Shown: piece by piece, positions 3,094 through 52,795 of the stretch
Position numbering within the stretch: position 1 is the stretch's first letter
Layout of the letters: each line of letters starts with the position of its first letter
From: Bacteroidota bacterium
GTDB taxonomy: Bacteria; Bacteroidota; Bacteroidia; Chitinophagales; BACL12
Length of the DNA stretch: 64,000 nt
Reading direction: 5' to 3'
NCBI GenBank assembly: GCA_016718035.1
Contig: JADKEK010000010.1
Span: 120,289 to 184,288 of the forward strand
Translations under genes and position numbers: made by a program
Notes under the pieces: model-generated
What the model saw: only the letters and a program-made list of their open reading frames with translations
Told to the model about the DNA's origin: nothing
Database searches by the model: none

Positions 3094-3227
3094 CGAATGG
3101 GTATTAAAAAAAGTTTTTAAATCATTATACGCAGTAATGGTACCTGCTTCAGCAATGTCCCAAACATCTTCACCTGCGCCACTTCTGATGATATCAACTT
3201 TATCAGGATTTACACCTTGATTGTTTC

Positions 3228-4466
3228 TTAAAAATATTTATCTAATTCTTCTCTTGATGAATATAGTCCCCAATATGCGCCATTAATAAACGTGGCTACG
3301 TTTTGATAAGCCGGTGTTACAATATGTGTTTGTGCCGCTAGTCGGTTGTTGATTACATCCTTCATTCTGGCATTAGAATTTCCCCAATCGTTATTAGCGC
3401 GAACACGAAATCCGTTTAAAGAATCTAATGGTTTATAATTTTCAAAAACATTAAAATCATATTCGCTATTATCACCAAAATCTTCATCAGCGGTAAACTG
3501 CATGCCTTTTTGCGGATAAACAGCGATAGAAGAATTTCCTGCAGCTTCAAACTTGATATTTTTACTAATTTTTTGAACGTGGTCTGCAGTAAAGTATTCA
3601 ACACCGGCAGGTATTTGTGGATTGTCAGGTTCCCATCCGTCTGCGCCATCATAAGCAGCTTCACAACTTAAACCTTCGTTAAACATATCACAGGAATTGG
3701 AACTGATACTAACTACCGGTAATTGTGTAGTCTCATCAATAAAAAATGTTCCGGTAATTGTTCTACTAGGCAATTTGCCCGGTTGTTTAGATACTGCTTT
3801 TACTACCTTGGTAGCACTAATGGTAATTGGTCCTGTATAGGATATGCCATCAACATCAGGCCAGTCGCCATTTGTGGTATATAAAATATCAGTTCCGCTT
3901 ATTGTTACATCAACACTTCCAGCATAAAAACCCGGTGCAGTGGTAAATATTGGTTCATCTGAATATGCGGAATAACAAGTAACATCGTTCGGGTCTTTTG
4001 CTGTTTCCGTATCAGCATAACACCAATCACCACCATCAGGTATACGCGCCATAACATCAGTAGCATATACATTACCAATGGTAACGCTGTCAATCAAATT
4101 ACCGCTTTCATCATAAAGCGCAACCGTTTCACCATTACTTAATTTAAAGTTGGTATGTAAATAATTGACAATACCGGGGCATCCGTAACAATCGCGATTT
4201 TTTTCTGATGCGAAAATTAATAATCGTTCTCCGGCTTCAATAATGTAATTCGGTAATAACCACTTATTCCAGGTATCCGGGTTATCGGTAATGCCATATT
4301 GTTGTACGTTAATATCAGCAACGCCAATATTCATTATCTCAATCCAATCCGGAAATTGACCATCTTCATCAGCCACAACGCGATTATTTGGTGCTATTTC
4401 ATTAATTACCAGCTGTGCTGTTACCAATTGCGGAACGGCCAACAATAGAAGGAGGAGCTTTTTCAT
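3228..4466 (-). CDS. CotH-family protein, N-terminal fragment (signal peptide, lamin-tail domain, CotH N-half), truncated by a frameshift
   Basis: Signal peptide MKKLLLLLLAVPQLVTAQ. LTD motif LVINEIAPNN...FPDWIEIMN...AGERLLIFASEKN. The CotH-like segment FRVRANNDWGNSNARMKDVINNRLA...INGAYWGLYSSREELDKYF ends abruptly in mid-domain at a stop inside an A/T homopolymer. Confidence 0.75.
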   Translation of the reverse strand: MKKLLLLLLAVPQLVTAQLVINEIAPNNRVVADEDGQFPDWIEIMNIGVADINVQQYGITDNPDTWNKWLLPNYIIEAGERLLIFASEKNRDCYGCPGIVNYLHTNFKLSNGETVALYDESGNLIDSVTIGNVYATDVMARIPDGGDWCYADTETAKDPNDVTCYSAYSDEPIFTTAPGFYAGSVDVTISGTDILYTTNGDWPDVDGISYTGPITISATKVVKAVSKQPGKLPSRTITGTFFIDETTQLPVVSISSNSCDMFNEGLSCEAAYDGADGWEPDNPQIPAGVEYFTADHVQKISKNIKFEAAGNSSIAVYPQKGMQFTADEDFGDNSEYDFNVFENYKPLDSLNGFRVRANNDWGNSNARMKDVINNRLAAQTHIVTPAYQNVATFINGAYWGLYSSREELDKYF

Positions 4467-4727: not shown

Positions 4728-6059
4728 ATGAAGACCTTAACCAGATTTTTATTGACTTTTTTATGCCTATTAGGTAGCAAACAGCTGCTTATAGCTCAAA
4801 CGGATTGTGATAATGTGACATCAGGCAATATTCCAATTACTGAAATTGGAACCGGATTTTTTATGGGCTATCAAGGCGGATTATATCCCGGTGGTTCTAA
4901 TAATATTCCACCTGCTCATTTACTTGCCGGAAGAAATATGGGCAATACCATAAAACCTTTAAATGCAGAAGGAGCAGTAGATATGGACAATGGTAAAATT
5001 GTTTTTGTAGCCTTTGGAGCCTCTACCGCAGGTAATACTTTTAATACATTTAAAGCAACAGTAAATTCCACACCGGATATTTATAATCCTTGTTTGAAAT
5101 TTGTTAATTTATGTATGGGTGGCAAAGGATTGGAAACAATGATACCACCTCAACATGATTGGTACTGGGCACAAATTGCTGACACTTTAATGGAAGATTT
5201 TGAAGTAACTGCGGAACAAGTACAAATTGGTTGGATTAAAACGGCATCTAAAGATGATTCTATTCCTGAATTTCCTATGCAAGCTGATTCTATTTATGAT
5301 AAATATATTCCGTCTATTCAACGAATAAAAGAAAATTTTCCGAATATTCGCATATTATACATCAGTAGTCATGCATATGGCGGTTATGCTGGCGAATTAT
5401 CTGATAATGCCGATTTAGCCGGTGAACCAGCTGCATATTATGGCGGATTTGCTGTTAAATGGGTAATAGAAGATCAAATTGAAGGCTCACCTGAACTTGA
5501 TTATTTAGGAGTTGATGCAGTTTCACCCTGGTTGGCATGGGGGCCTTACTTTTGGGCAGATGGATTAACGCCCAGAGCAGCTGATGGATTAATTTGGGAA
5601 TGTGAAGATTATGAACCTGATGGTGGAGGATTTCACTTATCAGAATCAGGCAAAACTAAAGAGTCGGAGATGCTGATTGATTTTTTATATAATCATCCCA
5701 CTTCGAAAAAATGGTTCCGCAACGGTCCAAAATGGAGTAGTTGTGATCCGGCAGGAAGATTGGCTGATGGGTCTATAATTGAAAACGATTCCGAAACCGA
5801 TTATTTTGAAGATGCACTTACAATTTATCCTTCACCAAATGACGGTAATTTTTATGTATCATGGAATAATATAATAGCTGGAAATTGTTTATTGCAATTG
5901 GCAAATAGCCAGGGACAGGTTATTTACAATAAAACATTACAACTTGCAGAAGGTGATGTAAATCAACACATCAGTATACCAAATTTACCTTCGGGTATTT
6001 ATTTTATTAATGTAATGGCAAATAATACAAGGCTGACAAAAACGCTTACGATAAAGTGA
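4728..6059 (+). CDS. Secreted hypothetical protein with T9SS type A C-terminal sorting domain
   Basis: Signal peptide MKTLTRFLLTFLCLLGSKQLLIAQ. I do not recognise the ~350-aa N-terminal domain. The C-terminal LTIYPSPNDGNFYV...LPSGIYFINVMANNTRLTKTLTIK is a T9SS CTD. Confidence 0.7.
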   Translation: MKTLTRFLLTFLCLLGSKQLLIAQTDCDNVTSGNIPITEIGTGFFMGYQGGLYPGGSNNIPPAHLLAGRNMGNTIKPLNAEGAVDMDNGKIVFVAFGASTAGNTFNTFKATVNSTPDIYNPCLKFVNLCMGGKGLETMIPPQHDWYWAQIADTLMEDFEVTAEQVQIGWIKTASKDDSIPEFPMQADSIYDKYIPSIQRIKENFPNIRILYISSHAYGGYAGELSDNADLAGEPAAYYGGFAVKWVIEDQIEGSPELDYLGVDAVSPWLAWGPYFWADGLTPRAADGLIWECEDYEPDGGGFHLSESGKTKESEMLIDFLYNHPTSKKWFRNGPKWSSCDPAGRLADGSIIENDSETDYFEDALTIYPSPNDGNFYVSWNNIIAGNCLLQLANSQGQVIYNKTLQLAEGDVNQHISIPNLPSGIYFINVMANNTRLTKTLTIK

Positions 6060-7752: not shown

Positions 7753-9222
7753 TTAATCAATCATTACTTTTTTTACTATTCGGTTACCTGTTTCATCATG
7801 AATAATTAATATGTAATTACCCGGAACCAAATCTGTTACCTGCATACTTGTTGTATTATTTGCTATGTTCATCATTTTCACTGCTCTGCCATTCAAGTCA
7901 TATAATGTAGCATAAGTTGCAGCATATATAGTTGGTATTTCAATATTCAATACCACACTTGACGGATTGGGATATACAATAGCCTCAAAAACGGGGTTAA
8001 TAATTTCTTCAGCAATAAGACGTAATGGTGCAGTAAAAATATCAACGCGTTTGGTATTGGTTGGAGTAGGATAGCCATAAGCTATAGTTCCACCTGCAAA
8101 AAATCCTTTACTGCCAACAGTTGTAGCAGCAACACCAGTGCGTGCAATAGATAAATTTTGTGTTGACCAACTGTTTAAAATTGGGTCATAAATTTGTACC
8201 AAGTCGGTATAAGTTCCTGCAGGAACTAAACTACCACCGGCAGCATATAATTTACCATTTATTACACTCAATGAAAATCCTGTTACATTGGTTGGCATTG
8301 TAATTGTACTCCAAGTATTAGTGAGTGTATTGAGCACATAAATATCGTTCGCATTTCCACCAAGTCCGCCACCAAAATAGGCATTATTACCAATTACAAC
8401 TGACCTCATGGCTGATTTAGCAATTGGCATATATACTACTGACCATGAATTGGTAGATGCATTGTAAATATCCACATTGGTTACATCACCCATATTACCG
8501 GTACCGCCTGCAAAAATGATTAAATCACCCACTACAGCAACAGCAATATTTTCACGTTTTTTAGAAAGTGTAGTTTTTGTCCAAATACCTGTTGTTACAT
8601 CATAAATATCGGCGTTATTGGAAGGTACAATATTATAGGACATGTCCCAATACCAACCTCCCGCAAAAACTATTTTATTTCCTGCAGCGCCAACTGCAAT
8701 ATTTGATCTTGCTTTAGATAAATTGGCAGTTGTTCTCGCACCGGTTACTGCATCGAAAATATCTACCTTTTTATACATATTTACCGGACCGGCAATGTCT
8801 GTTCGGCCAGTTCCACCTGCAAATACTACTTTATTGCCAATGGCACCTGCTCCACCAATTTCTCTTGCAGTAGATAAATTGAGTGTAGACCAGGTATTAG
8901 TAGTACTGTTATAAACATTTACTGTTTTGGTGTATTGTGGGTCGGCAAAATAGCCATATTTACCACCTGCAAAATATACTTTATCACCATAACTTACTAC
9001 ATCAATCAATGTTCTGGCAATGGTTAAATTGCCATAAGTATGCACACCTGTTACAGCATTAAATACATTCCATTCAGTACCATTTGAAAAAACGGCACAA
9101 GTAGAGGTGGAAGCTGCATACATATTGACAGCTGCCGTATTGGTTGAATCTATTACCCATTGGGCTTTGCCAAGGCTAATAATCATCAACATAACACTAA
9201 ATAATAACAATCTCTTTTTCAT
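7753..9222 (-). CDS. Kelch-repeat (beta-propeller) protein with T9SS type A C-terminal sorting domain
   Basis: The likely start is MKKRLLLFSVMLMIISLGKAQ at 9222. At least seven blades each carry an xxFAGG motif (KVYFAGGKYG, KVVFAGGTGR, KIVFAGGWYW, LIIFAGGTGN, NAYFGGGLGG, KLYAAGGSLV, KGFFAGGTIA). The C-terminal IVYPNPSSVVLNIE...LVPGNYILIIHD is a T9SS CTD. Confidence 0.75.
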   Translation of the reverse strand: MKKRLLLFSVMLMIISLGKAQWVIDSTNTAAVNMYAASTSTCAVFSNGTEWNVFNAVTGVHTYGNLTIARTLIDVVSYGDKVYFAGGKYGYFADPQYTKTVNVYNSTTNTWSTLNLSTAREIGGAGAIGNKVVFAGGTGRTDIAGPVNMYKKVDIFDAVTGARTTANLSKARSNIAVGAAGNKIVFAGGWYWDMSYNIVPSNNADIYDVTTGIWTKTTLSKKRENIAVAVVGDLIIFAGGTGNMGDVTNVDIYNASTNSWSVVYMPIAKSAMRSVVIGNNAYFGGGLGGNANDIYVLNTLTNTWSTITMPTNVTGFSLSVINGKLYAAGGSLVPAGTYTDLVQIYDPILNSWSTQNLSIARTGVAATTVGSKGFFAGGTIAYGYPTPTNTKRVDIFTAPLRLIAEEIINPVFEAIVYPNPSSVVLNIEIPTIYAATYATLYDLNGRAVKMMNIANNTTSMQVTDLVPGNYILIIHDETGNRIVKKVMID

Positions 9223-9371
9223 AATTTTGGTTTTTAGAAAACACATTTATATTACAAAGTTCTCTCGTAACCAAAGAGGGTAATGTGACAATTGTTACTT
9301 AGCGGGGTGACAGATATTGCTGGTTTCCAACAATTTTAAGGGTATCTTTTAAGTAATTAATGAGGTATGAA

Positions 9372-10658
9372 TTATTTTCCACCATTCATAAATAATGTGT
9401 TTAAATCGCCTCGTTTTTTGATATCATTTAAAACGGTTTCCTGTTTTACAAAGAAAAAGGGTGGAAGTTGTTCCCATTGCTCAGGATGGTAAGTGTATTT
9501 AACAAATTCGTTGTTTTCATAGGTGTTTAATTGTTGCATTAGGGTATCATCAATGATATATCCAATCGAATCGCAAGTCCATTCTGAATAATCGGTTATT
9601 TGATAAACTTCCTGATTAGTTGCCACATGGGTAAATGAATTGGTATGTGCATGGAAAATATTTTTCACAAAGTATTTGCCATTTAAGTTGAGATAATTTA
9701 TTTCCAAATACCCTTCATCAAATTCGCCTGTATATTTTAAATCGGGCATTAAAAAATTATTGTTTTTTGGATATTCATATTTAGGGTCACGTTTAGCTTC
9801 ACGAACAATTTTTAAAATAGCGTAATCGTCTTTATTAATAATATAATATCCGCTCTCATCTGCTTCACCATAAAACTCTTCTGAGGAATAATTATCTACA
9901 CCGTGATTTTCACCTGTAATCCCACGCAAGCTATAACTAATTACCCAGGTGCTGTCGGTAGAGGTGGAGTCGATATAAAAATCACCATGTCGTAAAAAAT
10001 AGGGCGTCAATAAAGAGTAATCGTGATGGTATACCGGATTTTGTTTAAAAACATCATATAATGCATGGTCATAATATTGGTCTATCGCAATTGTATATCG
10101 CGTGCGTCTTATTTTTTGTAAACCAAATGCTTCATCGCAACCCAATTTATTTTTTTCATTTTTAATCCGCATCACCGTCGCCACATTAGCTTCTGTAATT
10201 TCACGAAATACATTATTTATTTTTTTATAGTTGCGATAAAATCCAAAAGCAATATGCGCAGAATCAGCGTATAAATAGGGGAGTTGTCCTGCTGCTTTTT
10301 TCATTATGGTCAACCCATCCAGATATTCAATAGGTACGGTTTCCAATTCATACGGGGGACAAAAAACTACAACCGGTGAAAATTGGGTATTTGGTTTCGG
10401 AATACTGATTGCTACATGACAATTTAATCCAAGCACAGTCAAATTGATGGCTCCGGTATCCGGTCGGTTTATTTCAAATTTCCCTAAACTATCGGTGCTG
10501 TAAAGTCCTCTCACCCCTTCCAACTGAATAGGGCAGTCAGCCATTGGCGCGTTAGTAGCAGCGTTAATAATGGTGGCAGTATATATATGTTGCGCATTGA
10601 TTTGCAGGGGTGCGCAAAAAACAATCAATACCAACCATATAGTCACCACATATTTCAT
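9372..10658 (-). CDS. Secreted hypothetical protein with an N-terminal carboxypeptidase-regulatory-like fold
   Basis: Signal peptide MKYVVTIWLVLIVFCAPLQINAQ. YTATIINAATNAPMADCPIQLEGVRGLYSTDSLGKFEI resembles CarboxypepD_reg-type domains. I do not recognise the rest. Confidence 0.55.
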   Translation of the reverse strand: MKYVVTIWLVLIVFCAPLQINAQHIYTATIINAATNAPMADCPIQLEGVRGLYSTDSLGKFEINRPDTGAINLTVLGLNCHVAISIPKPNTQFSPVVVFCPPYELETVPIEYLDGLTIMKKAAGQLPYLYADSAHIAFGFYRNYKKINNVFREITEANVATVMRIKNEKNKLGCDEAFGLQKIRRTRYTIAIDQYYDHALYDVFKQNPVYHHDYSLLTPYFLRHGDFYIDSTSTDSTWVISYSLRGITGENHGVDNYSSEEFYGEADESGYYIINKDDYAILKIVREAKRDPKYEYPKNNNFLMPDLKYTGEFDEGYLEINYLNLNGKYFVKNIFHAHTNSFTHVATNQEVYQITDYSEWTCDSIGYIIDDTLMQQLNTYENNEFVKYTYHPEQWEQLPPFFFVKQETVLNDIKKRGDLNTLFMNGGK

Positions 10659-10753
10659 ATCCACCAAAATTATACATTACTAATCATTCAATTTCATCCC
10701 AAAGTAAAATTTAAATACCCTCCCGTAACTTCCTGCCTCCCCGCCTTCCCGGC

Positions 10754-10785
10754 AAAAAAAAAGCCCCCACAAAAACGCGGAGGCT
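10754..10785 (-). terminator. Rho-independent terminator of aconitase
   Basis: The minus strand reads agcctcc-gcgtttttgt-gggggct followed by ttttttttt, starting 22 nt after the stop at 10807. Confidence 0.6.
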
Positions 10786-10806
10786 CATATAACAATATAT
10801 TATAAA

Positions 10807-13062
10807 TCACTCATTAATTAAATTTAACGCAGAACCAGCCTTAAACCATTCTATTTGTTGTTGATTATAAGTATGATTAACAGTAATATTTTCGCTGCTG
10901 CCATTACTGTGATTTAAAACTAAAGTAAGCGGCACATTCGGAGCAAATGATGTTAAACCAATAATATCAATTACATCATCTTCCAAAATTTTATCGTAAT
11001 CATTTTTATCCGCAAAAGTTAACGCTAACATACCTTGTTTTTTCAAGTTGGTTTCGTGGATACGCGCAAACGATTTTACTAAAATGGCACGGACACCTAA
11101 GAAACGTGGTTCCATAGCAGCGTGTTCGCGGCTTGAACCTTCACCATAATTTTCATCACCAACTACAATAGAACCAATTCCTGCAGCTTTATAATCGCGT
11201 TGTACTTTTGGTACTGATTCGTAAGCACCTGTTAATTGATTTTTAACGGCATCGGTTTTTTCATTAAAATAATTGAGCGCACCAATTAACATATTATTGG
11301 AAATGTTATCTAAGTGTCCGCGGAATTTTAACCATGGACCCGCCATTGAAATATGGTCGGTAGTACATTTTCCTTTTGCTTTAATTAATAATTTTAATCC
11401 TTTTAAATCGGTTCCTTCCCATGCTTTAAACGGTGCTAATAATTGCAAACGTTTTGAATCCGCTGCAACAATTACATTAACTTCACTGCCATCAACAGCC
11501 GGTTCAATATAACCTGCATCTTCAACAGCAAAACCTTTGGTTGGTAATTCCAAACCTTTAGGTTCGTCTAACATCACCGCAACACCATCTTCGTTAATTA
11601 AAGTATCAGTAAGTGGATTAAATGTAATAGAACCTGCAATTGCTAATGCAGTTACAATTTCCGGTGACGCAACAAATGCATGCGTATTCGGATTACCATC
11701 GTTGCGTTTTGCAAAGTTTCTGTTGAAAGAAGTAATAATGGTGTTTTTCCGTTCAGGGTCGTTGCTGTGACGTGCCCACTGACCAATACATGGTCCGCAA
11801 GCATTTGCTAACACAACACCACCAATTTTTTCGAAATCGGATAGTATACCATCGCGTTCTACCGTAAATCGCACTAATTCACTTCCCGGTGTTATGGTAA
11901 ATTCTGATTTTACTTTTAATTTTTTTGCCACAGCTTGTTTTGCCAATGAAGCAGCGCGGTCTAAATCTTCGTAACTGGAATTGGTACAAGAACCAATTAA
12001 ACCTACTTCTAATTCTGCTGGCCAGTTATTCGCAATAACAGCATCTTTTAATTTTGAAATTGGCCAAGCTAAATCCGGGGTAAAAGGACCATTTACATGT
12101 GGTTCCAATTCACTCAAATTAATTTCAATAACCTGATCAAAATAAGCCGATGGATTAGCATACACTTCTGCATCACCATTCAAATGTGCGGCAACGGTAT
12201 CAGCTAATGCAACAATATCGGAACGATCGGTAGCATTTAAATATCTGCGCATGCTATCATCGTAACCAAATACTGATGTAGTTGCACCAATTTCTGCACC
12301 CATATTACAAATTGTGCCTTTACCTGTGCAGGAAATACTTTCTGCACCTTCACCAAAATATTCTACAATTGCACCGGTTCCACCTTTCACGGTTAAAATT
12401 CCGGCAACTTTTAAAATCACATCTTTAGCACTGGTCCAGCCACTCATTTTACCGGTGAGTTTTACACCAATTAATTTTGGCATTTTAAGCTCCCAAGGGA
12501 AACCTGCCATCACATCTACTGCATCGGCACCACCAACACCAATTGCCACCATGCCTAAACCGCCGGCATTTACGGTATGACTGTCGGTTCCAATCATCAT
12601 ACCACCCGGAAATGCATAATTTTCAAGCACTACTTGGTGAATAATACCTGCACCCGGTTTCCAAAAACCAATACCATATTTGTTTGAAACAGAAGCCAAA
12701 AAGTCAAATACTTCTTTGCTGCTTTCCAGTGCTGCTGCTAAATCCTGCTGTGCACCAACTTTTGCCTGAATAAGGTGGTCGCAATGCACTGTAGAAGGAA
12801 CAGCTACTTTTTTCTTACCTGCGCTCATAAACTGCAATAATGCCATTTGAGCGGTAGCATCCTGCATGGCAACACGGTCCGGCCCAAAATCCACATAATC
12901 CTTGCCGCGCACGTAGTTTTTCGTCGCCAAACCCTCGCTCAGGTGAGCATACAATATCTTCTCAGTAAGGGTTAAAGGACGGTTAAGAATAGCTCTTGCA
13001 GCAGCAATTTTTGAAGGATAATTGGCATAAACCTGTTTAATCATTTCAATATCGAAAGCCAT
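10807..13062 (-). CDS. acn: Aconitate hydratase (about 750-aa mitochondrial-type aconitase)
   Basis: Full-length aconitase signature: [39 protein letters not shown], and Fe-S cysteine motifs [11 protein letters not shown] and [10 protein letters not shown]. Confidence 0.95.
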
Positions 13063-13099: not shown

Positions 13100-13223
13100 A
13101 CAAACAGAGGTCATTATTAGTTTATTAAACGAATAAAAATTATTTTTTAGACTTGTCTAAAAATAGTAAAACCATATGCTTTATAAATTTTGTAAAAAGA
13201 AGTAATTTTGGTAAAACTCCATT

Positions 13224-14867
13224 ATGAAAATCACTTCACTTGCTGCCTATTCCGCTGCGTCGGGATTGTTGCTCGGTCTCGCCTCAGAAGCTTCCGGCCA
13301 AATGACTTATTATAACATTGACCCTGATGCTACAGTTTTTGGTGATATCGATTACCCTATTGATTTAAATCTTGATGGCATTCCGGAAATGACGATGCAT
13401 GGCAATAGATGGTGGACGTTTACCAGTGGCGATGTATTCTCATCACAGCAAATCAGCTTTTTTAATTATGCGGAAATAGCAACATCAGCAGGCCCTCCTG
13501 AACCTGCACCAATTAATTTACATGTTGGCACAGCGCAATTCCCTACTTTGGCTGATGTTGGAGAAACAAATACAGCAGCTGACTTGCAATTACATTTTCA
13601 AAAGCCGGATGATGAAAGCAATGTTGTTGTTTACAGGGTGATACTATATTCCGGTTACGATGACCCCACGCTTGCTGAAGCAAATGCCGTTACTGCCGAA
13701 CGATACACTCAAGTGCTTCCGACAGGTGACGATATCACCATAAATTTTAATGAAACTACGCTCGATATAAATGGCAATCCGCTAATTTCCGGTACTTATT
13801 ACAAAGCTATTATTCTTTCCATACCTGATGGCATTATTGTAACAGGAAGAGACCTTTCATTACCATCAAATACGATGAACTATATTTTAAGAGAAGCACC
13901 AGTTGCTGAAGATATTTATTTAAATTCTACTGGTAATGAAGATGATATTTCCGGTTTTTATGGAAGTTTTACATTGGATGAAACTAATGTATCATCTGTG
14001 CGTGCATATTTAACTGATGGTTTTGCATTTGTAGAAGAGTTACTGCTTTTAGAAAGTGATTATTATATGGAATTAACACCTGTTGTTGGTGAAAACTTAA
14101 TATCATTTTCTACCGATAAATTAATTTATACTTCTGGTGCACCAGTGCTGTTTGAAACTTATTATTTAAATATAGTTTCTATACCGGATAGTACCACCAA
14201 TTCTATCCCGTTATACGAGTATGATGGTGCATATTTCAAATACCAATACTATTCCGAAACACCCACAGTTACTATAGTTGATACAGTTGGCAACGGCTCA
14301 GCCATTCAAGTAAATTTCCCCATGTTTAATAATGAAGATGATTTGGAACATTATCGAATTTTTGTTGCAAAAGCTGATGATGTTGTATCGCCTGAAATTG
14401 TTTCTACAATATCAGCAATAAAGCGAATAGATATAACACCAACAGGCGCAAATCTGGATATCAATTTACATGATCTTCTTCACGATATTGATGGCAACAG
14501 TATTCAGTATGACCAACCTTATAAAGTTTATGTTGCTTTAAAGGGAGATTTTTATCCTGATTATTATTCACTCGCAGAACCATCAGCAGAATTTATTTTA
14601 GAAAAAAACTATGTCGAACCTGCAGTCAATCAAATGCCAAATGCTACACCTGAAATTTGGGTTAACAATAATATTGCACACATGCAAGGATTTACAGAAG
14701 AAGATCACACAATATTGTTATACAATGCACTTGGAGAAATATTATTGAATACTAATTTTTCAGGGGCTGATTTTTCTTTATTGCTGCCGGAATTGCCTAC
14801 CGGAATTTATGTGATAAGTGTAATGGGTGCAGGATCAGTATATCAACAATCGGTATATGTGTATTAG
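13224..14867 (+). CDS. Uncharacterised T9SS cargo protein, paralog 1 of a four-member local family
   Basis: Signal peptide. YYNIDPD...DLNLDGIPE is an EF-hand-like Ca loop. Three ~110-aa modules follow; the first, DVGETNTAADLQLHFQKPDDES..YRVIL...LDINGNPL...IPDG, is about half identical by eye to the first module of paralog 2. The C-terminal LLYNALGEILL...LPTGIYVISVMG is a T9SS CTD. Confidence 0.75.
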   Translation: MKITSLAAYSAASGLLLGLASEASGQMTYYNIDPDATVFGDIDYPIDLNLDGIPEMTMHGNRWWTFTSGDVFSSQQISFFNYAEIATSAGPPEPAPINLHVGTAQFPTLADVGETNTAADLQLHFQKPDDESNVVVYRVILYSGYDDPTLAEANAVTAERYTQVLPTGDDITINFNETTLDINGNPLISGTYYKAIILSIPDGIIVTGRDLSLPSNTMNYILREAPVAEDIYLNSTGNEDDISGFYGSFTLDETNVSSVRAYLTDGFAFVEELLLLESDYYMELTPVVGENLISFSTDKLIYTSGAPVLFETYYLNIVSIPDSTTNSIPLYEYDGAYFKYQYYSETPTVTIVDTVGNGSAIQVNFPMFNNEDDLEHYRIFVAKADDVVSPEIVSTISAIKRIDITPTGANLDINLHDLLHDIDGNSIQYDQPYKVYVALKGDFYPDYYSLAEPSAEFILEKNYVEPAVNQMPNATPEIWVNNNIAHMQGFTEEDHTILLYNALGEILLNTNFSGADFSLLLPELPTGIYVISVMGAGSVYQQSVYVY

Positions 14868-14938
14868 TAAATAAAATTTATCCGGTATTTCAATTATACT
14901 ATGCTAATCAAATAATAGCTTTAATAAAACCTCCAAGC

Positions 14939-16864
14939 ATGAAAACCCTGCAATTAAACACCTACGCTTCACTTGCTGCTGCTTTTCTTGCTACACATAA
15001 ACAAGCAGATGCGCAATTGATATTTACAGAAGTTGATCCCGACAAAATAATAACTAGTTTTGCCAATTATGGTCTCGATTTTAATGATGACGGAATTGAT
15101 GAAATAGTTTTTGAACCTGATTACTATTATACCTGGACATCTTTTGGTGGAGCATCATGGGGGTATAGTTCTCAAAATATGGATTTATTGAATTATGCTA
15201 ATGTAGCATTTTCAGAAAGCAGGCCAATGTTTTTACCACTAGGTGATGTGGTTGATGATACCAAACCCTTCACTTCAGGCAGCCTCAACTTATTTTATGG
15301 GAAATTTAATATAAGCCCCGAAACACTCGAAATGTATTCAGGAGAAAGCTGGATAAATACAGAAGGATTTATCGGTGTAAAATTTAATATAGATGCTAAT
15401 GTCCATTATGGTTGGGTGCGTGTCACCCTCAATCATGTTGAAGATGGACGTTTGCCTAGTTTAACCATTAAAGATTATGCCTATAATGCCACCCCCGGCG
15501 AAGGCGCAGAAACACTATTGTTTTCGGCATCAACTGCTAAAAATTTAATTCTTTCCGATATCGGAGAAACAAATACCGCAAACGATTTGCAATTACAATT
15601 TGATAAAGCAGTTGATGAATCAACCGTCAGCGCTTATCGCATTATTTTAGATAAAAGTTATCCCTATCCAACTTTAGCTGAAGCTAATCTCTTGCCGCCT
15701 GATCGATACACAGAAATATTACCCACCGGTTCAGATATCACAGTCCATTTCGACGAAACTACCTTAGATGTTGATGGCAATCCATTATTACCGGAAACCA
15801 ATTACAGGGCCTATGTGCTATCAGTAGCAGATGGAGTGATAGTTACAGTAAATGATATTTCCATTGCTTCAAATGCTGCGCAATATACCTTTGTTGAGGC
15901 ATCACCTGCGGCATATCCCAATTTGGCGGTTAATTTTATCGACGATGATATGTCGGCTTTTTATGTCACCTATAATTTTTATAATACAGATGTAGATACC
16001 ATTAAAGTATTTATTACAGATTATATTTATTATGAGTTAGATGAGCTCTTGACATTTTCACCTGATTATTTTGTAATAAGTAACCCGGTGATTGGCCCTA
16101 ACACAGTAACATTTACGCCCGATAACTTAGTATATTTAAGTGAAACACCTGTGCTTTTTAATAAATACTATTGTTATTTAGTTTCTGTGCCCGATGGTAC
16201 TGAAAGTAGTTTTTATTCTTATACATTTACCACCGATTATTTTTTATATCCCTACACAGATATTGCACCCGAAATAATTAATTCCAATATTTCCGGCAAC
16301 ATTACCGATATTCATGTGAATTATCCTATGTGGGAAAATGAAGAGAAAATAAATGAATATCTTATAGTGGTTGTTCCTGAAGGGCAATTGTTTACTAATA
16401 CGATGGTAGACACATTGGGATTTACTGAGGCTTATGATTTTCCACCGAATGGAGAAGATATTTCCAAAGACATGCTGCTATCTGCACGTGATGTTAACGG
16501 CGACGTTATTGTGCCGGGAATCTACTATCATATTTATGTTGTTTTAAAAGGAAATGTATCTCCTGTATATTATACCTGCTCCCAACCTTCCGCTGCATTT
16601 ATCTTAACAGCGCCGTTGTCAGCGAGTGCCATTGAAAATACTATTGCAATGGAATGTATAGGAACAACCTTACACGTAATGTTATCCAATTTACATACAG
16701 CCAACATGCAAATTGTGAACGCTGCAGGAGTAATCGTTTATCAAAACAAATTAATCAACACTGAATCTGCAATCGACCTCAGTTTTTTACCTGCAGGTAT
16801 GTATATCGCAACAGTTACCACTGATAATGAAAAAACGAATTTTGTATTTCCATTGACAAAATAA
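14939..16864 (+). CDS. Uncharacterised T9SS cargo protein, paralog 2
   Basis: Signal peptide. FTEVDPD...DFNDDGIDE loop. GFIGVKFNIDANVHYGWVRVTL..LTIKDYAYN domain. Three modules as in paralog 1 (DIGETNTANDLQLQFDKAVDES..YRIIL...LDVDGNPL...VADG). T9SS CTD (MQIVNAAGVIVYQ...LPAGMYIATVTT). Confidence 0.75.
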   Translation: MKTLQLNTYASLAAAFLATHKQADAQLIFTEVDPDKIITSFANYGLDFNDDGIDEIVFEPDYYYTWTSFGGASWGYSSQNMDLLNYANVAFSESRPMFLPLGDVVDDTKPFTSGSLNLFYGKFNISPETLEMYSGESWINTEGFIGVKFNIDANVHYGWVRVTLNHVEDGRLPSLTIKDYAYNATPGEGAETLLFSASTAKNLILSDIGETNTANDLQLQFDKAVDESTVSAYRIILDKSYPYPTLAEANLLPPDRYTEILPTGSDITVHFDETTLDVDGNPLLPETNYRAYVLSVADGVIVTVNDISIASNAAQYTFVEASPAAYPNLAVNFIDDDMSAFYVTYNFYNTDVDTIKVFITDYIYYELDELLTFSPDYFVISNPVIGPNTVTFTPDNLVYLSETPVLFNKYYCYLVSVPDGTESSFYSYTFTTDYFLYPYTDIAPEIINSNISGNITDIHVNYPMWENEEKINEYLIVVVPEGQLFTNTMVDTLGFTEAYDFPPNGEDISKDMLLSARDVNGDVIVPGIYYHIYVVLKGNVSPVYYTCSQPSAAFILTAPLSASAIENTIAMECIGTTLHVMLSNLHTANMQIVNAAGVIVYQNKLINTESAIDLSFLPAGMYIATVTTDNEKTNFVFPLTK

Positions 16865-17064
16865 AATCTTGGAATAATAGATTGTTTTATTGAGTCGCCA
16901 AGATTTATTTTGGTCTGAAATAAAATTGGTGTTCAATAAAAGTTGAAATGTTTGATTTTTCGGATGAGCACCTGCTTGCATGTAGTTTATTTCTCCGATT
17001 AATATTTGTTAATATCACCTCAATCTAAAAGCGAACATGTAATTTTGCCCTATAACATCAGTAG

Positions 17065-18291
17065 TTGACGCTAAAAGAGAATATATCGCTAGCATTACGT
17101 GCCATTCGAGCTAACCGCTTACGAAGCATGATCACCATTACCATCATCGCAATCGGGTTGATGGCACTAATTGGTATTCTTACGGCTATTGATGCACTGG
17201 AAGGCTCTATAAGCTCAAATTTCGCCACTTTGGGTGCCAATTCCTTTTCCATTCGCAACTTCAATGAAATTTCAGATGGCGATGAAACCCCAAAACCGGC
17301 GATTTCTTATAAGGAAGCAACAAATTTTAAAAAGGAGTATCAATTTCGAAGCGCATATGTTTCCATTTCAAGTGTATTTATTCGTGGTTCAGCAACTGTA
17401 AAGCAGGCCGATAAAAAAACCAATCCGAATGTGGATGTTTTAGGGGTAGATGAAAATTTTATTACCATTGGCGGTTATACAATTAGCAGCGGACGCGGGT
17501 TTTCAGCCACCGAATTGGAGAGTGCAGCCAGAGTGGTAGTGTTAGGCAGCGACGTCGCCAAAAAGATATTCACCGAAAAAGACAATCCAATTGATAAAGG
17601 CATTTCTATCAATAACCAATATTTCAGGGTAATAGGCATTTTAGAGGCCAAGGGCAGCAGTTTTATGCAATCGGATACAAGAGTGCTTATTCCGCTTACA
17701 ACAGCACGCAGTGTCTTTCCTCAGGCCGGTATCGATTCTTATGTTATTTCGGTTGGGGTAGATAATCCCGCCGACATGGAACCTGCAATTGGCGACGCCA
17801 CCGGGTTAATGCGTCAGGTGCGCAAATTAAGAATAGGGGAGGAAGATGATTTTACCATCTCCAAAAGCGACAGCGTAGTAAATGTTATGATAGACAACCT
17901 CAAATACGTTGCTTTCGGTGCCATGTTTATCGGTTTTATTACACTGATAGGCGCTGCAATCGGTCTTATGAATATCATGCTGGTGCAAGTGAACGAACGC
18001 ACTAGAGAAATAGGCGTTAGTATGGCCATTGGTGCCAATAGGGCCACTATCAGGAGCCAGTTCCTTATCGAAAGTATAGTAATCTGTATTATCGGCGGTA
18101 TTTGTGGTATCCTACTCGGCATTTTCATTGGCAATTTTGTCGCCCTGGCATTAAACGCCAGCTTTATTCTACCATGGTTATGGATTTTAGTTGGTTTAAC
18201 TGTTTGTGTTATTACCGGTGTAGCTGCGGGATATATGCCTGCCCGTCGCGCCTCCAAACTCGACCCAATCGAAGCACTTCGCTACGAATAA
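17065..18291 (+). CDS. ABC transporter permease, MacB/FtsX family (MacB periplasmic core domain plus FtsX 4-TM domain). No cognate ATPase lies in the window.
   Basis: LKENISLALRAIRANRLRSMITITIIAIGLMAL is the typical N-terminus. A large periplasmic loop is followed by the C-terminal FtsX helices (LMNIMLVQVNERTREIGVSMAIGA...YMPARRASKLDPIEALRYE). The start appears to be TTG, with a stop immediately upstream in frame. Confidence 0.85.
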   Translation: MTLKENISLALRAIRANRLRSMITITIIAIGLMALIGILTAIDALEGSISSNFATLGANSFSIRNFNEISDGDETPKPAISYKEATNFKKEYQFRSAYVSISSVFIRGSATVKQADKKTNPNVDVLGVDENFITIGGYTISSGRGFSATELESAARVVVLGSDVAKKIFTEKDNPIDKGISINNQYFRVIGILEAKGSSFMQSDTRVLIPLTTARSVFPQAGIDSYVISVGVDNPADMEPAIGDATGLMRQVRKLRIGEEDDFTISKSDSVVNVMIDNLKYVAFGAMFIGFITLIGAAIGLMNIMLVQVNERTREIGVSMAIGANRATIRSQFLIESIVICIIGGICGILLGIFIGNFVALALNASFILPWLWILVGLTVCVITGVAAGYMPARRASKLDPIEALRYE

Positions 18292-18407
18292 AAAGTGCTT
18301 TCGCTAATTCATACATAGGTTTCGCTTAGTGGAAACCGTCATTTCACACATTTCCGGTTTTTTGGTAATTTGTTGTAAATTAGTTTTACGGCATAAATCA
18401 ACTTATT

Positions 18408-19670
18408 ATGAAAACCCGTAACACAAACAAATTATTACAGTACTCAACTTTATCCACTGCTTTTTTATTAGCAGGAAAAGTTGAAGCACAAACTGAATAT
18501 CACGAATTTGACCCTTATTTACCATTAACCAATGCATCAGAAGTATTTATTGATGTAAATGACGATGGCGTAGATGATTTTTCTTTTGAATTTGCAAAAA
18601 GCTGGGGCACCAGTTCAACAGGATATGCCGGTGATAATTTCATTTTTAATGCCAAACAATTTGGCGAAAATGAAATGATGATAGCTTCGTTACCTGCTGT
18701 AGAATTTTATTCTTCCATTTTTACTGTTTATTGCTCATTCCCTTCAACCTTAGGTGTAAAACAATTAGCAGAAAATACCATTATCGATGTATTTAAAGAA
18801 TTTGGCAAAGCCGATGTAATGGCACGTGTTGATCAATGCGGATTTTATGGTGCAGATGGTGAACAAGGTGAATGGTTACTTGAAGGTGGAACAAAAGATT
18901 ATTTTGTTGGATTCAGAACAAATGATATAAGTGGTTATTATGGATGGATGCGCATTCGTCATTATGATTTTGGAGATGTAGATTATGTAAAAGATTTTTA
19001 TCTCAACGATGCAATAGGCAGTGGTGTTCAAACGCCTGACCTTGATAATATGGTTGCTCCTGCACCTGACAATTTAAATTTATTTTATGGTGGAGATGGC
19101 AAATTGATGTTGGAATTTAATGCTGCAAGCGATGAAGATAGTTTACAAGAATACCGTGTTATTTTGCGCAATACGATTTTTACCAGTGAATTAACAGCAA
19201 CCATTTGCGAAACTACTTTGCCTGGTAATTACATTACCGTTAATAAAACCGGTGCTTCAACTTATGTTGCAGACCTCAGCACACTAACTACCGATTGGGT
19301 GGGAAATACTTTAGAAGAAGGCGACGGTGTTAGCGCTTATGTATATAGTAAATTTAATTATCCGGTTACTATGTTGAACGGATTGTCGCCTGAATCGAAT
19401 GAACGCACATTGTCTGATGATGTAGCTATTCATAATAATGTGAACAACGAAACGCAGGTATGGCTGCATGATAATGTATTACATATAATTGCAACAAATA
19501 ATAACATTGAACAAATTGTAATTTACGATATACTCGGTCGTATAGTATATGCGGAACCTTTAAGTGAAAGTCAAAATCACATCAGTATTCCCAATCAATT
19601 AAATCAGGGTATATATGTCGTTTCAATGGTTACGGCGGATGGTGTTATTAGCCGGCAAATAAAATTGTAA
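18408..19670 (+). CDS. Uncharacterised T9SS cargo protein, paralog 3
   Basis: Signal peptide. YHEFDPY...DVNDDGVDD loop. YFVGFRTNDISGYYGWMRIRHYD...VKDFYLND domain. One module (LEFNAASDEDSLQEYRVIL). T9SS CTD (IVIYDILGRIVYAE...LNQGIYVVSMVT). Confidence 0.75.
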   Translation: MKTRNTNKLLQYSTLSTAFLLAGKVEAQTEYHEFDPYLPLTNASEVFIDVNDDGVDDFSFEFAKSWGTSSTGYAGDNFIFNAKQFGENEMMIASLPAVEFYSSIFTVYCSFPSTLGVKQLAENTIIDVFKEFGKADVMARVDQCGFYGADGEQGEWLLEGGTKDYFVGFRTNDISGYYGWMRIRHYDFGDVDYVKDFYLNDAIGSGVQTPDLDNMVAPAPDNLNLFYGGDGKLMLEFNAASDEDSLQEYRVILRNTIFTSELTATICETTLPGNYITVNKTGASTYVADLSTLTTDWVGNTLEEGDGVSAYVYSKFNYPVTMLNGLSPESNERTLSDDVAIHNNVNNETQVWLHDNVLHIIATNNNIEQIVIYDILGRIVYAEPLSESQNHISIPNQLNQGIYVVSMVTADGVISRQIKL

Positions 19671-19674
19671 TATT

Positions 19675-20574
19675 ATGCATCCTACCACCCAAACACGCTT
19701 GATGCATTACAGTTTAATGGCTGGTGCAATAACTGTTGCACAAAAATCAAATGCACAAATTATTTATACCGATATTGAACCGGATATTTTATTATACCAA
19801 TATGTAAATGATTCAGAAGGCTGGGGTTATGTTGATTTGAATGATGATGATATTACTGATGTTGCTGTATTATTTGAAGTAGGATATAATTGCGGGTATT
19901 GCCCGTATTGGGTCGATTTCAGGGTGAATGTCAGCACACCAAACGAGGCTGCAGTTGCATTTGATGGGCCATGTACTTTGTCTACCGCTTACAGTGATGG
20001 CACCTGCTATGTGCCAGGTAGATGGTTAACCAATTTTTTGGTAGAAGGACAGGAAATTAATCCCGAAGGTGAATTTTTAAATAATGCACCTGAGTTATAT
20101 GATTTTAATTGTGGTGCATATGGTGGGCAATGTGTTCAAGGTTTTTTCAGAAGTGAATATAGTGCAACAGATGATCAATTTATTGCTATCCGATTAATTG
20201 AGATGGATACTAATTATTGCTGGGTACGTTTGCGATGGGAGGGGGACAAACTGTATTTAAAAGATTATACCTGCAATTTAAATGCAGGTGAAGGTTTAAT
20301 TATTGATATTCCTGAGCCATCGCCGGTGAACATCGAAAATGAAACATGGCAACCTGCAATTATTTCAACAAATAATAGTATTCAAATTCAATCGAATATT
20401 ATTCCGGAGAATGGTATTATTCAGTTAGTAGATATGCAAGGCCGAATTGTATATGCAACGGCATGGAATCAAAAAAAACATATTATTGAGACTGATTTAC
20501 CTTCAGGTTTATACATCTTAACGATACAGGACATTACCCATAATTATTCGCAACAAATTGCATTACCGTTTTAA
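19675..20574 (+). CDS. Uncharacterised T9SS cargo protein, paralog 4 (shortest: N-domain plus CTD only)
   Basis: Signal peptide. YTDIEPD...DLNDDDITD loop. FIAIRLIEMDTNYCWVRLRWEGDKLYLKDYTCN domain. T9SS CTD (IQLVDMQGRIVYA...LPSGLYILTIQD). It starts 4 nt after paralog 3. Confidence 0.75.
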   Translation: MHPTTQTRLMHYSLMAGAITVAQKSNAQIIYTDIEPDILLYQYVNDSEGWGYVDLNDDDITDVAVLFEVGYNCGYCPYWVDFRVNVSTPNEAAVAFDGPCTLSTAYSDGTCYVPGRWLTNFLVEGQEINPEGEFLNNAPELYDFNCGAYGGQCVQGFFRSEYSATDDQFIAIRLIEMDTNYCWVRLRWEGDKLYLKDYTCNLNAGEGLIIDIPEPSPVNIENETWQPAIISTNNSIQIQSNIIPENGIIQLVDMQGRIVYATAWNQKKHIIETDLPSGLYILTIQDITHNYSQQIALPF

Positions 20575-20612
20575 AAAATAAAACCCTCACAAATTTAATT
20601 GTGAGGGTTTTT
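20575..20612. terminator. Bidirectional rho-independent terminator
   Basis: aaaaaataaaa-ccctcac-aaatttaatt-gtgaggg-ttttt between convergent stops at 20574 (+) and 20639 (-). Confidence 0.7.
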
Positions 20613-20638: not shown

Positions 20639-21085
20639 TTATCCTTCGATAACTTCAAAGTTTACCGGAATGTTGTGGTCTTTATCTAACGCAATGTGCG
20701 CAGTAAAGTTGCCTAAAGTTTTCACTTCATCAGGAAGAACAATTTTCTTTCTGTCAACAACTAATCCGATTTGTTTTTTGATTGCTTCAGCTAATTGAAC
20801 GTTGGTAATAGAACCAAAAATTTTATCGCTTGCACCTACTTTAGCGCCTACTTTAATAGTATTTGCTTGTAATTGCGCGGTAACTTCCTGGATTTTTTCG
20901 AGTAATTTACGCTCACGCGCAACTTCACCCTTTTGGCGTTCAACCATCATTTTACGGTTGCCTTCGTTGGCAATTACAGCTAACCCCCTTGGGATTAAGT
21001 AATTGCGGCCATAACCATCACGAACTTTTACAAGTTCATTGGCATCGCCTAAATTGTCTACGTCTTTAATTAATATTACTTCCAT
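20639..21085 (-). CDS. rplI: 50S ribosomal protein L9
   Basis: MEVILIKDVDNLGDANELVKVRDGYGRNYLIPRGLAV is the canonical L9 N-terminus. It is the last gene of rpsF-rpsR-rplI. Confidence 0.95.
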   Translation of the reverse strand: MEVILIKDVDNLGDANELVKVRDGYGRNYLIPRGLAVIANEGNRKMMVERQKGEVARERKLLEKIQEVTAQLQANTIKVGAKVGASDKIFGSITNVQLAEAIKKQIGLVVDRKKIVLPDEVKTLGNFTAHIALDKDHNIPVNFEVIEG

Positions 21086-21092
21086 AGCTCAA

Positions 21093-21359
21093 TTATTTTA
21101 AAAGGTCAGTTACGTAAGGTAAAATAGCAATCTGTCTGCCGCGTTTAATAGCTTGCGCTACTTTGCGTTGGTATTTCAGACTGTTACCTGTTAAGCGACG
21201 AGGTAAAATTTTACCTTGTTCGTTAACAAATTTCAATAAGAACTCAGGATTCTTGTAATCGATATACTTAATTCCGCTTTTTTTGAAACGGCAGTATTTC
21301 TTGCGCATCATCCCTAATTTGGGCGCTGCGAGGTATCTGATGTTTTTTCCACCTGCCAT
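21093..21359 (-). CDS. rpsR: 30S ribosomal protein S18
   Basis: [60 protein letters not shown] is the S18 signature. Confidence 0.95.
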
Positions 21360-21360
21360 A

Positions 21361-21753
21361 TTAAGCCTCCTCAGTTGCTTTGGTTAACTTATCTTGTGAA
21401 TTAGCGCCCGCTTTGGCTTTGCGTCCAATTTCACCGCGGCGCTTGCGTTCGTTATAGTCGATGGAATACTTGTCTAAGCGAATGGTTACAAAGCGTAATA
21501 CATTCTCATCACGGTTAAACTGGATATCCAATTTAGCATTGATGTCACTTGGGCCTTTGTACTCAAGCACATAATAAATACCTGTGCTTTTTTTCTTGAT
21601 TTTGTAAGCTAACTGCTTAAGGCCCCAGTGCTCTTCGGCAACTACTTCACCTCCGTTCGAACGAAGGAAGTCCTTGTAGGCTTCCTCGGTCCTCTTCACG
21701 TCGTCATCTGAGAGGACAGGAGTGAAAATGATGACTGTTTCGTACTGGTTCAT
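21361..21753 (-). CDS. rpsF: 30S ribosomal protein S6
   Basis: [20 protein letters not shown]...[25 protein letters not shown] is the S6 signature. It is the first gene of the conserved S6-S18-L9 operon. Confidence 0.95.
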
Positions 21754-21881: not shown

Positions 21882-22733
21882 ATGAAGCAATTATTGTTCA
21901 AAACAACCATCATCTCTGCGTTTGCCATTGCGACGCTTGCGGGATGTAAAAAAGAAAACCTCGACACTGACACAACTATTGCTTTAGACAATTCCATCGC
22001 TGATGGGGCTTTTCAGGACATGATGGGCGTGGTGAGCGAACAGGCTACCAACGAAGGCTTGTCCGGGTTCACAATCGGCACTATTCACGCTAAAATTGCT
22101 GATGATTGCCCTACCGTTACCTTCAGCGAAGCATTAGGCGTTTTCCCGAATACGATGACCTTAGACTTCGGCACGAGCTGTGTCGGGTATATGGGCGTTG
22201 AGCGTTCAGGGAAAATTATGGCCACCTTCACCGGGTATTACAAGGATGCGGGCACGGTTATCACCCTAACCACCGATAACTACTATGTAAACGGCAGCAA
22301 GGTGGAAGGCACCAAAACCGTTATCAACGAAGGCCTTACTATTGAGGGACATCCTTGGTTTTCGGTAATTGTTGATGGAGGCCTCATAACCCTGGAAACC
22401 GGCGAAACGATTTCATGGAATAGTTCCCGTATGCGCGAGTGGACAGCAGGTTACGATACGCCTGAATTGGAAGATGATGTGTATGGCTTAAACGATGGTG
22501 TTGCGGCTGAATATGCTATTACGGGTGTTAACCGCAATGGAACTCCATTTACTGCGCATATTGCTCAAACCTTAGTAAAACGAATGGATTGCCGGTACAT
22601 TACCTCCGGTATTCTTGAAGTAACGCCTGAGGACATGACCACCCGTTCACTTGATTTTGGTGATGGTGATTGTGATAATAAAGCAACTTTAACAGTTGGT
22701 GAATTTTCAGCGGAGATTACACTGTTGTATTAA
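21882..22733 (+). CDS. Hypothetical lipoprotein
   Basis: Lipobox-type signal MKQLLFKTTIISAFAIATLAGCKKE. I recognise no domain. Confidence 0.6.
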   Translation: MKQLLFKTTIISAFAIATLAGCKKENLDTDTTIALDNSIADGAFQDMMGVVSEQATNEGLSGFTIGTIHAKIADDCPTVTFSEALGVFPNTMTLDFGTSCVGYMGVERSGKIMATFTGYYKDAGTVITLTTDNYYVNGSKVEGTKTVINEGLTIEGHPWFSVIVDGGLITLETGETISWNSSRMREWTAGYDTPELEDDVYGLNDGVAAEYAITGVNRNGTPFTAHIAQTLVKRMDCRYITSGILEVTPEDMTTRSLDFGDGDCDNKATLTVGEFSAEITLLY

Positions 22734-52724: not shown

Positions 52725-52795
52725 AGGTCGGAAGCGGATTCGAACCGCTGTAGAAGCTTTTGCAGAGCCTTGCCTAGCCACTCGGCCATCCGACC
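52725..52795 (-). tRNA. tRNA-Cys (anticodon GCA), 71 nt, CCA not encoded
   Basis: The minus strand reads GGTCGGA-TG-GCC-GAGTGGCTA-GGC-A-AGGCT-CTGCAAA-AGCTT-CTAC-AGCGG-TTCGAAT-CCGCT-TCCGACC-T. This gives a 7-bp acceptor stem, a T-loop TTCGAAT, anticodon GCA and discriminator U. Confidence 0.9.

Follow-up and report, generated by a model that had tools for sequence, protein, structure and literature searches.

The closest described counterparts of the proteins considered here are the type A cargo proteins exported by the T9SS (type IX secretion system), such as RgpB and HBP35 of Porphyromonas gingivalis. Cleavage of the Sec signal peptide before a Gln residue is known as the Q-rule of the Bacteroidota (PMC5837995, PMC10653852), and translocation across the outer membrane is directed by a C-terminal domain (CTD) (PMC11285876). 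In type A cargo, PorU removes the CTD, after which the protein is attached to anionic lipopolysaccharide (LPS) or released (PMC4560394, PMC8545088, PMC9143113). We analyzed a cluster of four paralogous genes for putative cargo proteins of this type, together with the MacB-type permease gene located among them, in a 64,000-nt stretch of DNA from an uncultured Chitinophagales bacterium (contig JADKEK010000010.1, positions 120,289 to 184,288). The whole stretch is referred to as the window, all coordinates are positions within it, and the paralogs are named A (547 aa), B (641 aa), C (420 aa), and D (299 aa). Like RgpB and HBP35, these proteins have a putative Sec signal peptide with Gln at position +1, a terminal domain of approximately 75 aa of the Por_Secre_tail/TIGR04183 type, and Ig/fibronectin type III (FN3)-like spacers ahead of the CTD. 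They differ from the P. gingivalis proteins in that their N-terminal head domain has no curated family or solved relative. Our interpretation, to which we assign a probability of about 0.7, is that the cluster represents four old paralogs of a secreted or surface family plus one unrelated housekeeping gene.

An earlier model-made reading of the DNA letters, here called the sequence-only reading, had placed five open reading frames (ORFs) on the + strand, and our analysis confirmed their coordinates. Paralog A (13224..14867) encodes a putative signal peptide, a truncated head, three FN3-like modules, and a type A CTD. Paralog B (14939..16864) has the complete architecture, paralog C (18408..19670) has a head, one FN3-like module, and a CTD, and in paralog D (19675..20574) a Cys-rich head is joined directly to the CTD. 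The permease gene (17065..18291) encodes 408 aa from a TTG start. The sequences of A, B, and the permease are identical to NCBI entries MBK9557513.1, MBK9557514.1, and MBK9557515.1, respectively. By blastp, A and B are 37% identical over 452 aa (1e-82), and the other pairs gave E-values of 3e-13 (B-C), 6e-12 (C-D), and 3e-6 (B-D). When a hidden Markov model (HMM) of the head domain was run against a six-frame translation of the window, it matched exactly the four ORFs (8e-59, 4e-54, 4e-44, and 4e-10). Judged by sequence similarity, the paralogy of A to D is far above chance. The single build plan that had been proposed for all four, with a putative signal peptide, a head, 0, 1, or 3 modules, and a type A CTD, was borne out.

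The head, an all-beta domain of approximately 165 aa, carries a calcium-type loop (Dx[DN]xDG) and a core strand with the motif HYGW-R. In B it spans residues 25-191 (15011..15511, +; HMM 7e-60), with the loop at D47-E55 (nt 15077-15103, +) and the core strand HYGWVRV; the heads of C and D are at nt 18486-19031 and nt 19753-20301, respectively, also on the + strand. An AlphaFold2 model of the head of B alone had a mean predicted local distance difference test (pLDDT) score of 88.6 and a predicted template modeling (pTM) score of 0.83. The loops reported earlier for the four paralogs (DLNLDGIPE, DFNDDGIDE, DVNDDGVDD, and DLNDDDITD) are present, and all four match the linear motif of acidic ligands at positions 1, 3, 5, and 9. 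The acidic positions proved to be 99-100% conserved in an alignment of 210 head domains, in which the loop D-x-[ND]-x-[DN]-G-x-x-[DE] showed D at 99%, N/D at 99%, D/N at 100%, G at 67%, and D/E at 99%. The same alignment revealed conservation of an N-terminal strand Y-T-D-x-x-P-D (Y 92%, P 98%, D 97%), of the core Y-G-W-x-R (Y 91%, G 88%, W 100%, R 93%), and of a K-D-Y-A-Y motif. The pattern Y-x-[DE]-[IVF]-[DE]-P-[DY], proposed for all four N-termini, is exact in C and D; A reads YYNIDPD, with N at position 3, and B reads FTEVDPD, with F at position 1.

The Dx[DN]xDG calcium motif is known from a dozen unrelated folds (PMC3123361). The head loop fits the linear motif of the corresponding loops in integrin alpha FG-GAP repeats, thrombospondin type 3 repeats, dockerins, and EF-hands (PMC3123361), and, like the loops of FG-GAP hairpins, it is located between two beta-strands, which it joins in the head model. 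Unlike the Dx[DN]xDG repeat proteins, the head has a single loop per domain and no helix-loop-helix. Membership of the head in the FG-GAP family was rejected, no Pfam FG-GAP match being found above threshold. EF-hand membership was also rejected because the loop joins beta-strands; one of 30 members gave a match to EF-hand_5, at an E-value of only 0.3. The loop, described as EF-hand-like in the sequence-only reading, is more aptly termed a Dx[DN]xDG loop between beta-strands. In other proteins such a loop holds one structural Ca2+, and the head would bind Ca2+ likewise.

The sequence-only reading had found a G/C-W-[VM]-R-[VIL] core in three of the four proteins (HYGWVRV, YYGWMRI, and NYCWVRL, with KD[YF] after each). 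The motifs are present as read, but the absence of the core from A is not a family trait. Only the first part of the head is retained in A (13296..13499, +), the head HMM covering profile positions 1-68 only; the remnant keeps the DLNLDGIPE loop, and the deletion junction is located at about nt 13498. In locus L009, from a metagenome-assembled genome (MAG) of the same species whose proteins are 94-100% identical to those of the window, A has an ortholog of 635 aa. Alignment of DNA and protein with L009:55-1962 revealed a clean in-frame deletion of 264 bp (88 codons) in A, and this deletion accounts for the lack of the head core because the lost codons include the HYGW-R strand. The deleted 547-aa form is on record in one contig and the full form in six, and the deletion is a strain-level event rather than a property of the family. 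In another same-species MAG, the 1300-aa protein P0223 (NCBI MBK9456889.1) joins undeleted A (residues 1-634) to B (residues 660-1300) by read-through of the 71-bp spacer, arising from either a lost stop codon of A or a sequencing error.

The head belongs to a family that extends far beyond the cluster. A profile built from 11 head domains was searched against a library of 1.84 billion cluster representatives, whose entries carry no taxon names; it matched 9,015 of these at E<=1e-3, and 3,244 at the stricter E<=1e-10, most of them head-plus-CTD proteins of approximately 280 aa. Among 214 hits, the head directly followed the signal peptide in 196, and 110 were 250-320 aa in length, the size of head-plus-CTD proteins such as D, whose arrangement is the most frequent one in the family at large. 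Two to five copies of the head were found in 16 of the 214 sequences, including giant proteins, and fusion partners of the head included Peptidase_M43 with fn3, PKD, HYR with P-domain, and Big_5. On these numbers, the head domain is not lineage-specific as had been proposed; only the arrangement of a head, three modules, and a CTD is rare, with 21 homologs of B among 5.8 billion sequences.

Consistent with the earlier failure to assign the N-terminal domain to a named family, no Pfam or NCBIfam model touched the head in any of the four paralogs, and a Pfam scan of 30 diverse heads gave nothing below E=0.026. Comparison of head profiles with PDB sequences yielded chance-level matches only (integrin alpha-6, 0.73; plexin, 0.36). 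With Foldseek, the head model had no match in PDB (best E=0.03, TM-score <=0.26) and none in BFVD. No paper turned up when full texts were searched for HYGWVRL, IKDYAYN, and variants of these core motifs, and a search for work on T9SS cargo in Chitinophagales found nothing relevant. By the measure of these profile searches, the head is a very large family without a curated description, and its fold may be one without a solved relative.

These data also bear on the idea that the head is a hydrolase or lyase and that the proteins are secreted degradative enzymes. Hydrolases are common among T9SS cargoes, and the Peptidase_M43 fusion, which was found in one giant protein, joins a head to an enzyme. 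The head itself, however, matched no enzyme family in Pfam, NCBIfam, or the PDB sequences, and it lacks a conserved set of residues of catalytic appearance. Nearly invariant are the acids of the calcium loop plus P, Y, G, W, and R in the core strands. In addition, the head occurs in tandem copies and beside the adhesin-type modules PKD, HYR, and Ig-like domains. We consider an enzymatic head very improbable. Because there is no catalytic signature, and because of the tandem copies and the adhesin-type module partners, the most likely role of the head would be Ca-stabilized binding of an adhesin- or lectin-like kind.

The modules of approximately 120 aa that separate head and CTD, which the sequence-only reading could not place in a family, map to the tandem FN3 fold. 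HMM matches indicate module counts of 3, 3, 1, and 0 for A, B, C, and D, respectively. The three modules of A (13530..14609, +) lie at approximately residues 103-221, 223-341, and 342-462 (HMM 1e-54, 5e-45, and 2e-49), those of B (15524..16618, +) at residues 196-318, 319-438, and 439-560, and the one module of C at about nt 19104-19406 (+). The modules are homologous to one another, as determined by hhalign (probabilities of 98.6%, 99.3%, and 85%). An AlphaFold2 model of whole B, based on 15 homologs and with a mean pLDDT of 84.6, shows an all-beta head (approximately residues 27-183), three beta-sandwiches (approximately 201-312, 325-435, and 445-555), and a CTD sandwich (569-641). When the modeled modules of B were compared with PDB by Foldseek, they matched tandem FN3 arrays with E-values from 8e-11 to 1e-6, including the gp130 complex 8d82 (8e-11), RPTPmu, LAR, and fibronectin 6xay (2e-7). 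The Foldseek matches, the inter-module homology, and the HMM counts support the identification of the module as an FN3-like spacer, and on the modeled structures the modules are FN3-like beta-sandwiches. They resemble the tandem FN3 arrays of fibronectin (6xay), LAR (6tpw), and the cytokine-receptor ectodomains (8d82) in forming consecutive beta-sandwiches, and differ from them in falling below the gathering threshold of Pfam fn3 (PF00041), with E=0.11 and 13.1 bits where 25 are required, and in having, in each modeled module of B, an extra short helix between strands 3 and 4. The modules of some relatives touch the PF23608 Ig_ILCR1 model.

The CTDs of B (16634..16861, +), C (nt 19443-19661, +), and D (nt 20353-20565, +) passed the TIGR04183 cut-off of 23 bits with scores of 33.5, 32.6, and 34.1 bits, respectively. 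The CTD of A (14643..14864, +), which is of type A like that of B, scored 21.8 bits and so was 1.2 bits short; it matched a local CTD HMM at 5e-26, and the C-terminus of A aligns with those of the other paralogs. The signal peptides, as assessed by eye, consist of a basic N-terminus, a hydrophobic stretch, and a small-x-small motif followed by Gln. Throughout the close family, Q26 follows the predicted cleavage site without exception, and Gln occupies this position in 81% of the 210 head domains, in line with the Q-rule. Taken at the level of sequence, these features point to export of the four proteins by a T9SS. The window contains other T9SS cargo genes, five of type A and one of the CHU_C type, and the presence of six other CTD-bearing genes suggests that a T9SS is present in the genome.

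The sequence-only reading had described the cluster as interrupted by the permease. The permease matches MacB_PCD (5.5e-35) and FtsX (5.3e-22) in Pfam/NCBIfam along its full length, and among PDB sequences it matches E. coli MacB (5nik, 4e-51) and a split transporter (5xu1, 2e-34). Like MacB (5nik) and the split Spr0694-0695 system (5xu1), it has a MacB periplasmic core and an FtsX four-helix domain; unlike the MacB systems, it lacks a fused or adjacent ATPase, and neither an adaptor gene nor a TolC gene is located nearby. The claim that the window holds no ATPase partner stood up to a scan of all its ORFs, none of which has the S[GR]G[QEMK] signature of an ABC ATPase. The only two Walker A matches of the window belong to DnaB and to an ATP-grasp protein of the PurK type. 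An ABC ATPase is also lacking from the syntenic loci, so the ATPase must be encoded elsewhere. A 147-aa ORF on the opposite strand within the permease gene (17814-18257, -) is probably spurious.

We compared the cluster with related loci comprising six close relatives from a permease scan of species genomes, the same-species locus L009, and two loci reached via family homologs. The permease is 77-84% identical in six Chitinophagales/Bacteroidota MAG relatives, and the loci share a common backbone of aconitase (-), permease (+), and rplI-rpsR-rpsF (-). In the window the aconitase gene (10807-13062, -) is the divergent left neighbor of the cluster and rplI-rpsR-rpsF (20639-21753, -) its convergent right neighbor. 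Identity to the window is 77-93% for the backbone proteins, 84-88% for aconitase, and 26-56% for the family proteins. The numbers of family genes upstream and downstream of the permease are two and two in the window and in L009, one and three in L003 (equivalent to L004), and three and one in L001; L007 has two upstream before its contig ends. None is found upstream in L008, which has at least one downstream, or in L006, which has one downstream, separated from the permease by 1.5 kb of other small ORFs. In L005, there are no family genes on either side and the order aconitase-permease-rplI is kept. In the space between permease and rplI, L005 (11869-12394) contains a short ORF made of tandem repeats of IRKTNGGILSIRYQESG, together with an ORF of 112 aa and a membrane protein of 116 aa; L006 shares the latter two. 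In L001 (GCA_041392955.1, a Chitinophagales MAG), the family array and the permease are separated by an inserted fatty-acid desaturase gene, and the permease (15265-16493) is present as two ORFs, MacB_PCD (279 aa) and FtsX (127 aa), by either a frameshift or an assembly error.

A neighbor-joining tree of the head domains resolved three clades: all upstream genes (A/B type), the C type, which includes the L008 and L009 orthologs, and the Cys-rich D type. The upstream and downstream flanks therefore hold different, old subfamilies, and the permease, fixed between aconitase and rplI-rpsR-rpsF, does not interrupt a single array. The proposed expansion by tandem duplication did find support: the three upstream paralogs of L001 cluster together in the tree, indicating recent tandem duplication, and arrays of up to five genes are found elsewhere. 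The family evolves fast, with copy number changing by tandem duplication and loss and with internal deletion and read-through fusion altering individual genes.

The permease and the four cargo genes might instead form one functional, co-transcribed unit in which the exporter supplies or processes something that the cargo needs. The five genes share a strand and have short spacers with no clear terminator between them, and family genes flank the permease in seven of eight related MAG loci. Such a unit is difficult to reconcile with the permease of L005, which has no family gene, and with the intervening small ORFs in L006. Conservation of the permease resembles that of a housekeeping gene, in contrast to the fast divergence of the family, and neither an ATPase nor an adaptor is encoded in the window. 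The sequence TAATTTTG (17040..17047, +), which matches the -7 promoter element TAnnTTTG of Bacteroidota, begins 25 nt ahead of the permease start codon, and a second copy precedes paralog A (13203-13210); both are consensus matches only. A scan for sigma-70 promoters gave background levels, and the sigma-70 consensus is not applicable to Bacteroidota. We also found no MacB/FtsX gene within 8-10 kb in seven distant loci (four with B homologs and three with head-plus-CTD genes), and no MacB-like gene near head-domain genes in 80 metagenomic loci (L020-L099), which were obtained from a head-alignment scan and represent one subfamily picked by two peptide patterns. The co-occurrence of permease and family that had been proposed as a check was thus seen in 0 of 87 loci outside the lineage, and the adjacency is confined to one syntenic Chitinophagales lineage. 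A functional unit of the five genes is in our view very improbable. These data indicate that the permease is a conserved backbone gene unrelated to the family, the adjacency marking where the family expanded.

In loci without the aconitase backbone, a different neighbor recurs, usually ahead of the head-domain genes. This protein of approximately 760-880 aa, here called PST (phosphodiesterase-TPR-sulfotransferase), contains a PF01663 Phosphodiest domain of the alkaline-phosphatase superfamily, TPR repeats, and a C-terminal sulfotransferase domain. PST genes adjoin head-domain genes at L014:7663-9936, L015:7466-9940 (-), L017:5281-7923, and, in two copies, L018:5495-7933 and 9142-11670. In the metagenomic set, 40 of the 80 loci have a PST homolog adjoining a head-domain gene; for loci of 8 kb or longer, the figure is 20 of 27. 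The typical position of the PST gene is 30-70 bp upstream, on the same strand, with 1-5 head-domain genes following in tandem; a separate ORF of approximately 185 aa that is sulfotransferase-like precedes it in about 12 loci. The PST proteins are 35-40% identical to one another, and there is no NCBIfam equivalog for them. An SDHGF motif is retained in them, and a G-x-P-[RK]-[ST]-G-[ST]-S loop in three of five. They are cytoplasmic, with neither a signal peptide nor a transmembrane segment. A third recurrent group in these loci, ORFs of approximately 115 aa antisense within the PST gene, is probably spurious.

The pairing raises the possibility that head proteins work with PST, either as its substrates, for example by sulfation before export, or as binders of its product, with the window paralogs having moved away. 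Head and PST are the only real gene families recurring across the loci, and the PST-linked proteins P0019 and P0013 are the nearest outgroups that share FN3-like modules with the window proteins. On the other hand, no PST was found among the 20 larger ORFs of the window that were scanned together with the aconitase, ribosomal-protein, and family genes, or in the loci syntenic with the window; the lead therefore concerns the wider family rather than the cluster. The lack of a signal peptide or transmembrane segment means that PST cannot reach a folded exported protein. Moreover, the 80 loci come from one subfamily, and gene adjacency alone does not prove a relation of enzyme and substrate. A search of the literature for the head-PST pairing and for sulfotransferases in connection with T9SS found no relevant paper. 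As an account of the window paralogs, we consider a partnership with PST unlikely, if worth keeping in mind. More speculative still is the proposal that the head marks a large, undescribed class of T9SS cargo paired with PST, which would modify these proteins or make their ligand, the window genes being a relocated and expanded branch; one example of such a modification may be sulfation near the acidic N-terminal Y-T-D-x-x-P-D strand.

Under the reading that we favor, of four old cargo paralogs beside an unrelated backbone gene, the signal peptide of each protein would be cut before Gln and the protein would then cross the outer membrane through the T9SS by means of its type A CTD. By analogy with Porphyromonas, the PorU sortase would remove the CTD and link the protein to anionic LPS or release it. 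The mature protein would consist of an N-terminal head on a stalk of 0, 1, or 3 FN3-like modules, and the differing stalk lengths would present related, diverged heads at differing distances from the cell surface. The permease is the membrane component of a distinct MacB-type ABC exporter, and cargo genes have accumulated in the intergenic spaces on either side of it.

Several points weigh against this interpretation or parts of it. Binding of Ca2+ by the head is predicted from the motif, and in D the Gly of the motif is replaced by Asp. No structural homolog backs the binding role of the head, which could have an activity hidden from sequence. The signal peptides were judged by eye rather than by a predictor, and no T9SS core gene was noticed in the window, in which no search aimed at core genes was made. 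Anchoring to anionic LPS is known from Porphyromonas and may not be valid in Chitinophagales. Finally, family genes adjoin a same-strand permease in seven of eight genomes of the lineage, which would fit a lineage-restricted link between the two, although such a link is unlikely.

The remaining features of the window concern its surroundings. A terminator-like hairpin with a 13-bp stem (20580..20611) is located between paralog D and the convergent rplI. Two backbone genes without a Pfam match are syntenic in all related MAGs: a 431-aa gene (9372-10667, -), 36-43% identical across related MAGs where complete, and a 283-aa gene (21882-22733, +), with 55-64% identity. The other T9SS cargo genes encode a DUF4397+CTD protein (33-986, no head), a CotH/LTD/Fn3_assoc cargo protein present as two ORFs of 412 and 667 aa (1090-4466, -), a 443-aa protein in which the CTD is the sole recognized domain (4728-6059, no head), a Kelch beta-propeller+CTD protein (7753-9246, no head), and a protein of 560 aa whose CTD is of the CHU_C type (33067-34749, no head). 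The CotH/LTD gene is probably a frameshift or pseudogene in the window, because the syntenic loci have a single gene encoding 1131-1319 aa. With these five type A genes and one CHU_C gene in addition to the cluster, the region is rich in T9SS substrates. The sole Rfam match of the window is one tRNA gene (52725-52795, -).

The cluster itself is ordinary, being one more array of T9SS cargo genes in an uncultured Chitinophagales bacterium. Its head domain occurs in over 9,000 protein clusters, nearly always right after the signal peptide of T9SS cargo, and, being absent from Pfam, NCBIfam, and PDB, it merits a curated model and a structure. The frequent pairing of head and PST provides a concrete handle on its function.

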